Assembly (NCBI GenBank): GCA_002841945.1
Contig: PHBI01000012.1
Location: 4,169 to 68,168, forward strand
From: Deltaproteobacteria bacterium HGW-Deltaproteobacteria-14
Lineage (GTDB): Bacteria > Myxococcota_A > UBA9042 > PHBI01
Reading direction: 5' to 3'
DNA length: 64,000 nt
Shown here: positions 33,500 to 40,094 of the stretch, one piece after another
Position numbering within the stretch: position 1 is the stretch's first letter
Layout of the letters: each line of letters opens with the position of its first letter
Program-made: the position numbers and the translations under genes
Notes under the pieces: generated by a model
Databases searched by the model: none
What the model was told of the DNA's origin: nothing
What the model saw: the letters and a program-made list of their open reading frames with translations, nothing else

Positions 33500-34534
33500 C
33501 TACCAGGTCGGGGGGAGCAGCACGATGCGCGTCAGGAGGCCCTCGGGCGCGAGCGGCTCGAAGGTGCCGATCGCGTAGGTCAGAGCGATCTCTCCGGCCG
33601 CTCCGTCGAGGGCGGGGACGAAGCTCATCGCGCCGCAGAAGGCGCCCGCGGGGACCTCGCAGCGGGTCACCGGCACCGCGGGTGACCACGGGCCGCTCGG
33701 GCCGAGGCCGGTGCGGACGAAGACCGCGCCCCCGAGCGGGGTCGCGTAGGCGACGAGCACGCGGCCCTCGGGCAGGAGTCGCGCCGTCAGCCCGCGCCCG
33801 CCCTCGAACAGCGGCCAGGCGTCGTCGGGATCGCTCGCGAAGGCGTCCCCGTCCCGGTAGAAGCCCCACGCGGTCGGGTCGTCGAGCGCGGCGAGCGGCG
33901 CGCGCGCGACAAAGCAGCTGTCGGTCAGAAACCCGGACTCCGCGCAGCCGTAGGCGTAGACGTGGCCGTCGACCACGATCGCCGCGTCGCCGTAGCTCGG
34001 TCGCCCCGGGGCGAAGAGGTAGCGCTCTCCCGCGACGAACACGCCGCTCGCGCGGTCCCAGCGGGCGAGCCCCGTCCCGACCGCGTCGAACCCGTGCGCC
34101 GTCCGCACGAAGGCGTAGACGTCGGCGCCGGCCGCGAACACCGCGAGGAAGCCGCCGGTCCCGCTCGGCGTCAGCGCGGACACGTCGAGCCCGGAGACGG
34201 CCGCGCTCGCGTCGGACGCCAGCGGGACGCCGCACGCCGCGCCAGAGTCCTGTGGCACCGCGACATAGACCGCGTTGTCGAGCTTCAGCGGCGTCGTTGA
34301 CGCGCGTTGCAGTGCGTCCGCGACGACCAGCGTCCCGCCCCCTGGGGCGTTCAGGGCCCGGAGCCGCCCGCGGACGCCCATGAGGTCCGGCGGGCGCGCC
34401 AGGACCGGGCAGCTCGGGAGCGTCGTGACGGCGTCGTCCGCAGCCGGCGTGGCGCGCGGGTCGTCGAGGGAGACGGCGCACCCGGCGAGACCGAGCGCGA
34501 GCGCCGCCAAGAGCCGCCGGTCAACGAAAGACAT
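33500..34534 (-). CDS. Lipoprotein that is a paralog of the DUF4185-like protein at 35438..36520.
   Basis: Signal and lipobox MSFVDRRLLAALALGLAGC. Shares the C-terminal pattern VVDGHVYAYGC..GFLTDSCFVARAPL with the paralog's [23 protein letters not shown]. Its start overlaps the upstream gene end by 14 nt. Confidence 0.7.
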   Translation of the reverse strand: MSFVDRRLLAALALGLAGCAVSLDDPRATPAADDAVTTLPSCPVLARPPDLMGVRGRLRALNAPGGGTLVVADALQRASTTPLKLDNAVYVAVPQDSGAACGVPLASDASAAVSGLDVSALTPSGTGGFLAVFAAGADVYAFVRTAHGFDAVGTGLARWDRASGVFVAGERYLFAPGRPSYGDAAIVVDGHVYAYGCAESGFLTDSCFVARAPLAALDDPTAWGFYRDGDAFASDPDDAWPLFEGGRGLTARLLPEGRVLVAYATPLGGAVFVRTGLGPSGPWSPAVPVTRCEVPAGAFCGAMSFVPALDGAAGEIALTYAIGTFEPLAPEGLLTRIVLLPPTW

Positions 34535-35441
34535 GGCGCACCCCGACCGAGAAGCGGAGCTCGCGGCGGTTGATCAGCAGCCCCTTGCCGTTGCCGGCGT
34601 CCAGCGACAGAAACGGCAGGAGCTCGCCGGCGTCACCGGGGAACGCGACGCCGAGGATCCCGCGCAAGAAGTAGCCCTCCGCGGCGCTGTCGTCGCTCGG
34701 GATGAGCCCCTCGAAGAAGAGGCGCGCGACCGGCTGCACCGACGCGCACGCCGCCCAGCGGACCCCGATCGCCAGGCTCGGTTGGTGGGCCAGCCCCTCG
34801 TCGAGGAAGGTCGCGACGTCCTGGGACTCCGCCCGCGCCCCGAACATCAGCGGCCAGCCGTTGGTGAAGATGCGGTCGGCGAGGCGCACGTTCACAACCC
34901 AGGCGTCTGCGAGGCGGAGGCGCCAGGCGACGTCCACGCCGAGCCACAGCCCGCCCCCACCGAACGGGATGTCCTCGGGACCGAAGGGCAGGTCCACGCG
35001 GTCCGACGCGGCGGCGACCAGCTCGCGCGAGCGCTCGACGCCGAGCTCGACCCCGATCTCGAAGGCGCCGCCTGCGCCGAAGACCGGCGTCATGTCGAAC
35101 GTGAAGGCGCCGCCGAGGGTGCCGACCACCCGGGCCAGCTCGTCGGGGAAGGCGCCCTTGGCGTGGGCGTCCTCGAGCGCCACGAGCCCGGACAGCGCCA
35201 GATGCACGCCGACGCCGACGCCGCCGTCGCCGTCCCCGGGCCACGTCACGAGGCCGAGGGTCTGGCCGAGAGACAGCTGCGCCCGCGGACCCCAGGCGTA
35301 CTCCAGCACCGGCGCGTCCCGCGACGCGGTGTCGGCGAGCGGGACGGCGCGCGTTACCCCGGGGAGCCAGGTCGGCGCTGCGTGGGCGGCCGCCGGGACG
35401 GCGCACGAGAGCGCCAGCAACGTCGCGGTCCAGCGCCTCAT
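34521..35441 (-). CDS. Secreted beta-rich protein, probably an outer-membrane beta-barrel. Hypothetical.
   Basis: The 648-aa track ORF 34521..36467 is split. The ATG at 35441 gives the signal peptide [22 protein letters not shown] plus 285 aa with alternating hydrophobic strands. ATGA overlap with the stop of 35438..36520. Confidence 0.65.
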   Translation of the reverse strand: MRRWTATLLALSCAVPAAAHAAPTWLPGVTRAVPLADTASRDAPVLEYAWGPRAQLSLGQTLGLVTWPGDGDGGVGVGVHLALSGLVALEDAHAKGAFPDELARVVGTLGGAFTFDMTPVFGAGGAFEIGVELGVERSRELVAAASDRVDLPFGPEDIPFGGGGLWLGVDVAWRLRLADAWVVNVRLADRIFTNGWPLMFGARAESQDVATFLDEGLAHQPSLAIGVRWAACASVQPVARLFFEGLIPSDDSAAEGYFLRGILGVAFPGDAGELLPFLSLDAGNGKGLLINRRELRFSVGVRHVFR

Positions 35442-39500: not shown

Positions 39501-40094
39501 GCCCGCGGACATGGGCACCGTCCACTGGGTCGGGGTGGCGACGTCCTCCCAGAGGTGGAGCCCCCAGCCGGAGTAGGCGCCGTCGTCGCGGAGGTAGTAG
39601 ACCGCGAGCTGGTCGGCGCCGGGGATGGCCGGGGGCGCCGCGAGCCGCGGGGCCTCGCCGCCGGAGAAGTGCCAGATGCCGCCCGCGGCGTCCGCGAGGG
39701 CCACGGTGACCGGCGCCTCGGGGTCGCTGACGCCGTCCTTGCTGAAGCTGTACGTGACCGTCGCGGCGCCGTCGCTGAGCGGCAGGACGAAGGTGGCGCC
39801 GAAGCCGTCGGGGTCGGCTGCGGCGATGGTCGGGCCGCCGTCGACGTCGCCGGTGACGGCCGCGCTCCAGCCGGCGTAGTCGCCGTCGGCGCGGTGGTAG
39901 TGCAGCACGAAGGGCGCCGGTGTGGTGTCGGTGTCGGCGGCGGTGTCGAGCTCGACCCCGTCCGCGGTGTCAGCGACGTCGGTGACGGTGGTGTCCGCCG
40001 CCGGCTTGGGGTCGTCGCCGCAGCCGACGAGCCCGAGGAAACCGACCACGAGCAGGGCGTGGAAGACCGGGATGATGGAGTTGTGGCGCTTCAT
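36525..40094 (-). CDS. pulA: Pullulanase-type alpha-1,6-glucosidase (GH13 debranching enzyme) lipoprotein with N-terminal carbohydrate-binding modules.
   Basis: 1189 aa. Lipobox [17 protein letters not shown] plus a D/T linker. Pullulanase motifs VVYNHT and [10 protein letters not shown]. Conserved HIRDFS after the N-terminal CBM41/48-like region (...[12 protein letters not shown]...). Confidence 0.9.

Follow-up and report, generated by a model that had tools for sequence, protein, structure and literature searches.

Here we describe a three-gene cassette in a 64,000-nucleotide stretch of contig PHBI01000012.1 (positions 4,169 to 68,168 of the forward strand) from Deltaproteobacteria bacterium HGW-Deltaproteobacteria-14; this whole stretch is referred to as the window. 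The three genes, which encode the proteins A, B and C, directly follow a pullulanase gene on the minus strand. The conserved unit is the A-B-C cassette itself, which is autonomous and translationally coupled and recurs across uncultured Myxococcota, while its link to the pullulanase is a recent, lineage-specific insertion into an island of α-glucan genes. With moderate confidence, we favor the explanation that the cassette encodes an outer-membrane module for the processing and uptake of a glycan, most likely a furanosidic one, with A as the enzyme, C as a binding or structural partner and B as a conduit or anchor.

Structure of the operon

The genes in question and the hairpin that follows them are listed here in the order of reading.

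36525..40094, minus strand: pullulanase gene (1189 amino acids, lipobox LVGC)
35438..36520, minus strand: protein A gene, GH183/DUF4185-type lipoprotein (360 amino acids)
34521..35441, minus strand: protein B gene, predicted outer-membrane β-barrel (306 amino acids, type-I signal peptide AHA-AP)
33500..34534, minus strand: protein C gene, divergent GH183-fold propeller lipoprotein (344 amino acids, lipobox LAGC)
33228..33262, minus strand: GC-rich hairpin CCCACCCCCACCC-AGATGA-GGGTGGGGGTGGG then TTTG, as read from the sequence

The window is about 71% GC, so lists of open reading frames (ORFs) are rich in artifacts and the GC content of third codon positions (GC3) serves to pick out the genuine frames. 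GC3 was 0.97 for the pullulanase and 0.96, 0.94 and 0.94 for A, B and C, as expected of real genes, and alternative ORFs overlapping the four genes had the wrong third-position periodicity. A preliminary description of this region, made from its letters and ORFs, had given the coordinates and junctions exactly: the pullulanase ends in a TAG stop that is separated from the ATG of A by a 4-nt spacer (GCTG), A and B share an ATGA overlap, and B and C overlap by 14 nt. Lipoprotein signals on A and C and a type-I signal on B were found in the window and across all three families, with a disordered linker after the lipidated cysteine in both A and C.

As that description had also proposed, the pullulanase, A, B and C almost certainly share one transcript in the window's lineage, because the pullulanase and A genes are separated by only 4 nt here and overlap by 4 nt in a relative whose A is 76% identical. 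C and a convergent GH57 gene leave a gap of 367 bp; it contains the hairpin, which is, from its sequence, a probable terminator ending the pullulanase-A-B-C operon. It was not reported by a scan for consensus terminators, owing to its short T-tract. A scan of the operon for σ70 promoters and terminators returned no promoter and one chance-level terminator and was uninformative.

Conservation of the cassette across lineages

We surveyed the surroundings of A and B homologues that ranged from close to distant, using tblastn and profile hidden Markov models (HMMs) of A, B and C, with neighbors recorded in flanks of about 10 kb around each cassette. The complete A→B→C order was found in 17 Myxococcota lineages, including the window's. 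Besides the window, the 4-nt overlap of A and B was present at 8 of the 9 other triad loci with gene calls, and B/C overlaps of 4-14 nt at 5 of these 9, as well as in the window and in a locus with B and C only (L027). Since the same order and overlaps recur in 17 lineages, the arrangement goes far beyond what chance would give.

A pullulanase, GH13, GH57 or (α/α)6 protein was encoded within about 10 kb only in the window and in L001/L002 (2 of 17 lineages), whose A is the nearest distinct relative of the window's A. The α-glucan linkage is thus absent from the other 15 lineages and gives no clue to the substrate; the earlier suggestion that coupling to a debranching enzyme implies an α-glucan substrate does not survive this comparison. 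The window's A also keeps all residues that are invariant in orthologues unlinked to α-glucan genes, so nothing suggests a lineage-specific change of substrate. GC content was 0.74-0.76 across the cassette versus 0.69-0.71 in the flanking pullulanase, GH57 and GH13 genes. The 36525..40094 product itself is a canonical type I pullulanase (GH13) lipoprotein (TIGR02103, 1202 bits versus a cutoff of 697.6; Pfam domains PUD ×2, Pullulanase_N2, CBM_48, Pullulanase_Ins and Pullul_strch_C) and is an upstream operon neighbor in the window's lineage, outside the conserved cassette.

The most constant pair within the cassette is B with the non-catalytic propeller, and the claim that the barrel is dedicated to A and C has held up accordingly across lineages. 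B adjoins a C-type propeller wherever the flank suffices, even where A is missing, as in L023/L027, which has B and a C-type propeller only. In L031, which carries the most distant B, the upstream partner is weakly C-type (HMM search, E 1e-7), a comparison of the B partners with the A profile by hhalign was not significant, and a 484-amino-acid lipoprotein is encoded downstream of B. L025, where B stands alone, is the exception to the pairing.

Two loci differ in integrity or surroundings. In L020 (8866-11844; metagenome-assembled genome (MAG) STL-MYX26, JAXLYZ010000009.1), A, B and C are each broken into several frames, owing either to pseudogenization or to errors in the assembly; another contig of this MAG, a short one (L011), carries a copy of the cassette that looks intact. 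In L001, genes for a GFA-domain protein, a small ORF and a PIN (VapC-like) protein lie between C and the GH57 gene (10000-11400), where the window has its 367-bp spacer only, and the stretch behind the cassette looks like a hot spot for insertions.

Protein A is a probable GH183 glycosidase

The preliminary description treated DUF4185 as an uncharacterized family, which is outdated: it corresponds to CAZy family GH183 (GH, glycoside hydrolase), all characterized members of which are retaining endo-α-1,5-D-arabinofuranases (PMC10115798, PMC10509167, PMC13444075). These enzymes come from Dysgonomonas, mycobacteria, a Gordonia phage, Myxococcus xanthus and Microbacterium, and their substrates are mycobacterial arabinogalactan and lipoarabinomannan. 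The catalytic Asp pair is D170/D188 in DgGH4185b (PMC10115798), while EndoMA1 uses D33 as nucleophile and D51 as acid/base, together with a third essential carboxylate, Glu243, that buttresses Arg198, and with Tyr293 and Trp138 stacking on the chain (PMC10509167). The M. xanthus GH183 enzyme is active on D-arabinan (PMC10115798), and a GH183 toxin with the same activity, delivered through a type VII secretion system (T7SS), was reported in 2026 (PMC13444075). We found no GH183 activity other than endo-D-arabinofuranase in the searchable literature.

A carries the motif VLWLFGDT and scored 63.3 bits with the DUF4185 profile PF13810, whose gathering threshold is 39.5; the match pairs residues 46-332 with profile positions 14-296. 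Its homologues number in the hundreds, are about 350 amino acids long and come mostly from Myxococcota/Polyangia MAGs. Across 46 aligned orthologues, D48, D66, E258, Y315, K318 and H320 were invariant (46/46), with D48 and D66 lying in G-x-D-G and F-G-D-[ST] motifs. Profile alignment to EndoMA1 (8IC1) placed Glu243 on E258, Tyr293 on Y315 and His298 on H320. The 18-residue spacing between D48 and D66 equals that of D33/D51 in EndoMA1 and of D170/D188 in DgGH4185b, and the putative equivalence of these residues is based on motif and spacing. Together, these features make A very probably an active retaining glycosidase of GH183 type, as far as its sequence can tell.

Compared with the Protein Data Bank (PDB), the A-family profile matched 4HBS over its full length and 8IC1 over residues 118-309, with 59.9 bits each; through these two matches, full-length and partial, A is predicted to adopt the five-bladed β-propeller fold proposed earlier. 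4HBS is BACOVA_04882, an uncharacterized propeller of DUF5005 type, and its match to the A family includes the G-x-D-G and F-x-D-S motifs. Literature on the function of 4HBS/BACOVA_04882 or DUF5005 was not found.

One A homologue stands apart from the cassette. A gammaproteobacterial MAG (GCA_018677695.1; L008, 7502-16716) encodes a solo 404-amino-acid homologue, 41% identical to A and without B or C, whose gene adjoins a cluster for exopolysaccharide biosynthesis that contains GT2, GT4, Poly_export and WecG/Bac_transf genes. This context suggests that some A-clade enzymes act on the producer's own exopolysaccharide rather than on D-arabinan.

Protein C is a likely pseudo-enzyme

C, which the preliminary description had called DUF4185-like, stayed below the PF13810 threshold of 39.5 bits (27.9 bits) and matched with its C-terminal half only (residues 184-302), so that the profile check holds for A and fails for C. 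The likeness itself was borne out by structure. The AlphaFold2 model of C (pLDDT 85.4) had the GH183 structure 8IC1/8HHV as its best Foldseek match (E 4e-12, TM 0.66) and also matched Mycobacterium tuberculosis AraH2 (8AN0; E 8e-7); by sequence, the C family profile matched 8IC1 (E 2.5e-8), and hhalign related the C family to the A family with 98-99% probability. C is homologous to A and has, according to its predicted structure, a five-bladed propeller fold of GH183 type.

The two proteins are not, though, the equivalent enzymes they had been taken for. Among 15 C family members, the nucleophile column held Thr (6), Arg (5), Ala (2), Val (1) and Glu (1) but no Asp, and the Glu243 column held Gly in 12, whereas Asp was present in the acid/base column in 11. 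The N-terminal part of the A/C alignment is of low confidence, which makes the loss of Glu243 firmer than that of the nucleophile. In the C-type propeller of L023/L027, the column of E258 holds Ser. C is nevertheless under strong constraint, given 37 invariant positions across its family and a GC3 of 0.94; four cysteines (C42, C101, C292 and C300) are invariant. On this residue pattern, C is likely a conserved pseudo-enzyme without the nucleophile and the third essential carboxylate.

Protein B belongs to an unnamed barrel family

AlphaFold2 modeled B with high confidence (pLDDT 92.4, pTM 0.87) and twelve long strands, and B is, on this model, a 12-stranded outer-membrane β-barrel of an unnamed family, in line with the barrel proposed earlier. 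An alignment of 43 homologues showed alternating hydrophobic patterns and, in most lineages, a C-terminal aromatic residue, together with a conserved N-terminal coil (SASRDAPVLEY) and the conserved loop motifs DIPFGGGG and DAGNGKG. The N-terminal coil, 22 residues long, is highly conserved and was modeled with pLDDT 84-97. Fold-match scores of the model were as follows.

OMPLA: 16.3
PcoB: 16.2
Oligogalacturonate porin GalP: 15.9
COG4313 channel: 15.7
KdgM: 15.1
FapF: 14.7
NanC: 14.6
Autotransporter β-domains: about 13-14

B had no match in Pfam (E ≤ 0.1), NCBIfam or PDB sequences, and 10 distant relatives of B had none in Pfam at E ≤ 1 except DUF7412, at 12.9 bits versus a cutoff of 27. When 1.84 billion representative proteins were searched exhaustively with a profile, only 193 clusters emerged, all of single-domain proteins of about 280-330 amino acids, and all 16 matches among GTDB species representatives were uncultured Myxococcota MAGs. 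Two assignments were considered for B and rejected: an OMPLA-like enzyme with a Ser-His-Asn triad on the outside of the barrel, since the B family has no invariant Ser, His or Asn, and Slam, KdgM or another named family, for which there was no sequence match.

The α-glucan island around the cassette

In the window, the cassette lies within an α-glucan island that spans 15984-29636, 40247-42913 and 46261-56219. Besides the pullulanase, the following genes were recognized.

15984-18716, minus strand: GH13+Glucodextran_C
26741-27709, minus strand: stand-alone Glucodextran_C protein
27705-29636: GH13 lipoprotein
29695-33132: GH57+CBM20+Big_5
46261-48222, minus strand: GH13 α-glucosidase-like gene
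51948-53747, minus strand: ATP-binding cassette (ABC) permease
53642-55411, minus strand: MalE-like binding protein
55014-56219, minus strand: MalK-like ATPase

No LamB-type or TonB-dependent outer-membrane transporter was recognized in the window's island. Three large minus-strand proteins without a Pfam domain (20164-22260, 23304-24872 and 24818-26740), two of which carry a 'choice-of-anchor X' motif (NF041940) that is also found in the GH57 protein, are candidate surface glycan-binding or anchoring proteins. On the plus strand and divergent from the pullulanase, 40247-42913 encodes an 888-amino-acid lipoprotein, which adjoins the pullulanase in L001 too; it gave weak, sub-threshold signals of (α/α)6-barrel glycosidases (MGH1-like, rhamnosidase six-hairpin and GDE_C) and may be an unclassified α-glucan-active (α/α)6 enzyme. 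The next plus-strand gene (42938-46258) encodes a 1106-amino-acid protein, partially similar to the gliding-motility lipoprotein CglD (65 bits, far under the cutoff), in which Cys-rich 'C..DDGDPCT..D.C' repeats, about 13 in number, precede bacterial TSP3 repeats; its C-terminus consists of a Gly/Ala-rich hydrophobic tail with an Arg-rich end, a candidate myxobacterial C-terminal sorting signal.

The α-glucan lipoproteins encoded at 27705, 29695, 36525-40094 and 40247 have in common 'C-G-D-[DG]' after the lipobox Cys, followed by a Thr/Asp/Ala-rich linker. The post-cysteine sequences of A ('C-T-D-P-A-P') and C ('C-A-V-S-L-D-D') differ from this, which may mean that they are sorted differently or that the cassette arose separately.

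Neighbors of the cassette in other lineages

Elsewhere, the neighbors of the cassette have no relation to α-glucans, as the following loci show.

L003: divergent σ54 activator (enhancer-binding protein), S8 peptidase
L005: type III polyketide synthase (PKS), phosphatidylserine (PS) decarboxylase
L007: PSD/DUF1592-type genes
L026: glyoxalase, S46 peptidase
L028: OsmC, histidine kinase
L029: extracytoplasmic function (ECF) σ factor and RskA-type anti-σ factor directly upstream (7335-8869), 4 nt before A; TonB-dependent receptor nearby
L030: M23 peptidase, TamB

Regulation of the cassette appears to be lineage-specific and tied to envelope signals.

Proposed function and comparison with known systems

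In the explanation that we favor, A would be an outer-membrane-anchored retaining endo-glycosidase of GH183 with its catalytic center intact, and C would be a paralogue of A that has lost catalysis; its role would most likely be to bind glycan or to act as a structural partner. B would pass the released oligosaccharides across the outer membrane, or would anchor and expose both lipoproteins. By the precedent of its family, the substrate would most likely be a furanosidic glycan, for example D-arabinan of actinobacterial prey cell walls, D-arabinan being the one substrate documented for GH183; it would not be an α-glucan. In the window's lineage, an insertion within the starch/glycogen island would have put the cassette at the pullulanase gene's 3′ end and so brought about its co-expression with the pullulanase.

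A more specific version of this proposal, which we put forward tentatively and regard as possible but doubtful, is a tripartite machine in which B would form an obligate complex with C, a dead GH183-fold lid or receptor, and recruit A, making it a TonB-independent counterpart of SusCD. Such a machine might serve import or display, perhaps in an attack on arabinan-containing actinobacterial prey. The actinobacterial envelope or capsule holds both α-glucan and arabinomannan polysaccharides, and the fusion with the α-glucan island might then reflect the joint degradation of α-glucan and arabinomannan from prey.

Described GH183 examples include EndoMA1 (8IC1), M. tuberculosis AraH1/AraH2 (Rv3707c; 8AN0), DgGH4185a/b, MyxoGH4185 and the T7SS toxin EatA. 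A resembles them in its score over the Pfam threshold, in two invariant Asp residues, 18 apart, that would correspond to the blade-1 catalytic pair, and in the Glu and Tyr aligned to Glu243 and Tyr293 of EndoMA1, and it is predicted to be secreted and lipid-anchored, as is the predicted surface lipoprotein of an epibiont in PMC10115798. C shares with them the five-bladed propeller, with 8IC1 as its best structural match, but not the catalytic residues. No described GH183 locus has a dedicated outer-membrane barrel or a pair of enzyme and pseudo-enzyme.

B, for its part, is like the oligosaccharide porins KdgM, NanC and GalP in its 12 strands and size class, but unlike them it has no Pfam match; its N-terminus is extended by 22 conserved residues, its conserved loops are long, with helices in one of them, and, unlike KdgM-type porins, it is obligatorily linked to lipoprotein genes. 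The cassette as a whole recalls, in miniature and without dependence on TonB, the SusC/SusD/SusG polysaccharide utilization loci (PULs) of Bacteroidota, in which a lipoprotein endo-glycanase, a non-catalytic lipoprotein and a barrel are likewise encoded together, and, as in some PULs, an ECF σ/anti-σ pair lies upstream in one lineage (L029). The resemblance is one of analogy only: the cassette belongs to another phylum, has neither a TonB-dependent 22-stranded transporter nor a SusD (tetratricopeptide repeat (TPR)-like) fold, and its presumed binding partner is a degenerate copy of the enzyme. As with Slam (DUF560), LptDE and RcsF-OmpA, the barrel gene adjoins genes for lipoproteins that it possibly serves, but Slam combines a 14-stranded barrel with an N-terminal TPR, while B is a single domain of 306 amino acids and 12 strands without a DUF560 match. 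We found no description of an A-B-C-type cassette in the searchable literature, and what is new about it is the arrangement, the underlying enzyme family (GH183) being a known one.

Several observations weigh against the proposed module. By sequence, the A clade is remote from characterized GH183 enzymes and lies midway to DUF5005/4HBS, as near to 4HBS as to EndoMA1. A profile of the N-terminal part of A matched 4HBS alone (GGDG...FNDSF) and no characterized GH183 enzyme, EndoMA1 included. Of the distal-subsite residues with which EndoMA1 holds D-arabinan (Arg198 and Trp138/Pro141), Arg198 and Trp138 have no conserved counterpart in the A family: Arg198 is an insertion relative to the A profile, next to a variable column, and Trp138 falls on a non-conserved column. 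Since the clade is remote and the distal subsites differ, the substrate may differ from D-arabinan, although the missing counterparts bear on the specificity of A and not on its membership in GH183. A also lacks a carbohydrate-binding module (CBM). No match to A was obtained by tblastn in 50,697 phage genomes, and hence no actinophage GH183, and no GH172 or GH116 exo-arabinofuranosidase or arabinose-catabolic gene was seen next to any cassette.

Other points concern the barrel and the module as a whole. Twelve-stranded barrels include non-channels, such as OMPLA, autotransporter β-domains and the plugged FapF, and the conserved, confidently modeled N-terminal coil of B could be a plug. The window's island has no other obvious maltodextrin outer-membrane channel, and a local α-glucan role for B is possible. 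Finally, the analysis shows how the genes are laid out, which folds B and C take, to which families the proteins are assigned, which residues are conserved and how often the genes occur together, and from this we infer a complex of A, B and C, the roles of B and C, the substrate and the membrane face of the lipoproteins (topology).

Alternative explanations

The reading closest to the preliminary description, that A and C are novel α-glucan-active propellers which join the pullulanase in processing limit dextrins or branched products and that B is a maltodextrin channel, draws on the tight coupling to the pullulanase in the window and L001 (a 4-nt spacer or overlap), on the position of the cassette within a complete island (three GH13 genes, GH57+CBM20, Glucodextran_C modules and MalE/MalK-like ABC genes) and on the failure to recognize another outer-membrane channel there. 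It was nevertheless rejected as the leading model after the synteny survey, and we consider it very improbable: the linkage is missing in 15 of 17 lineages, the window's A retains the residues of unlinked orthologues with no sign of a new function, C has lost its catalytic residues, GC content steps up from island to cassette, and characterized GH183 enzymes all cleave α-1,5-D-arabinofuranosides. To our knowledge, no member of the five-bladed propeller GH clans acts on α-glucans.

Two further explanations differ from ours in the task given to the barrel or in the origin of the glycan. In one, B would not be a channel but would carry, thread or plug-hold lipoprotein C, and A where present, at the surface, in functional analogy to Slam-dependent surface lipoproteins, RcsF-OmpA or LptDE; the enzyme would then attack material outside the cell, prey walls for example, and no uptake would be coupled to this. 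The pairing of B with a lipoprotein propeller, whose constant form is the non-catalytic C (L027, L031), fits this idea, as do the autotransporter/intimin β-domains and FapF among the nearest folds of B, with lumens that carry polypeptide, the 22-residue coil (pLDDT 84-97) as a lumen plug or interaction segment, and the disordered linkers behind the lipidated cysteines of A and C. Yet B has no homology to Slam/DUF560 or known lipoprotein transporters and its fold scores are equally good to the genuine oligosaccharide porins KdgM, NanC and GalP, and on balance we regard surface display or anchoring of this kind as unlikely. Quite improbable, in our view, is that A, C and B act on glycans of the cell's own envelope or exopolysaccharide during export or turnover, in parallel to the hydrolase-lipoprotein-barrel sets of alginate, Pel, poly-N-acetylglucosamine (PNAG) and cellulose secretion or to the MipA-MltA scaffold. 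Neighboring genes that are regulatory or envelope-related rather than catabolic (the L029 ECF σ/anti-σ pair, the L003 σ54 activator, and TamB and M23 in L030), the solo A homologue beside the exopolysaccharide cluster of L008 and the lack of accompanying exo-glycosidase or sugar-catabolic genes speak for such a role, but no synthase or glycosyltransferase was linked to the cassette in the Myxococcota loci examined, and we know of no D-arabinofuranose-containing polymers in Myxococcota.

Significance

For genome mining, the window illustrates that tight operonic coupling in a single genome is weak evidence of a shared substrate unless the coupling is conserved, which here it is not. The barrel family of B has neither a name nor a Pfam entry. 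If the proposed outer-membrane module is correct, the cassette would represent a new, compact way for diderm bacteria to link a glycosidase at the surface with a small, dedicated barrel, a pseudo-enzyme serving as the connecting partner. GH183 chemistry, for which mycobacterial-type D-arabinan has been the sole known substrate so far, would also reach beyond actinobacteria, actinobacterial phages and gut Bacteroidota into a large, uncultured group of myxobacteria.

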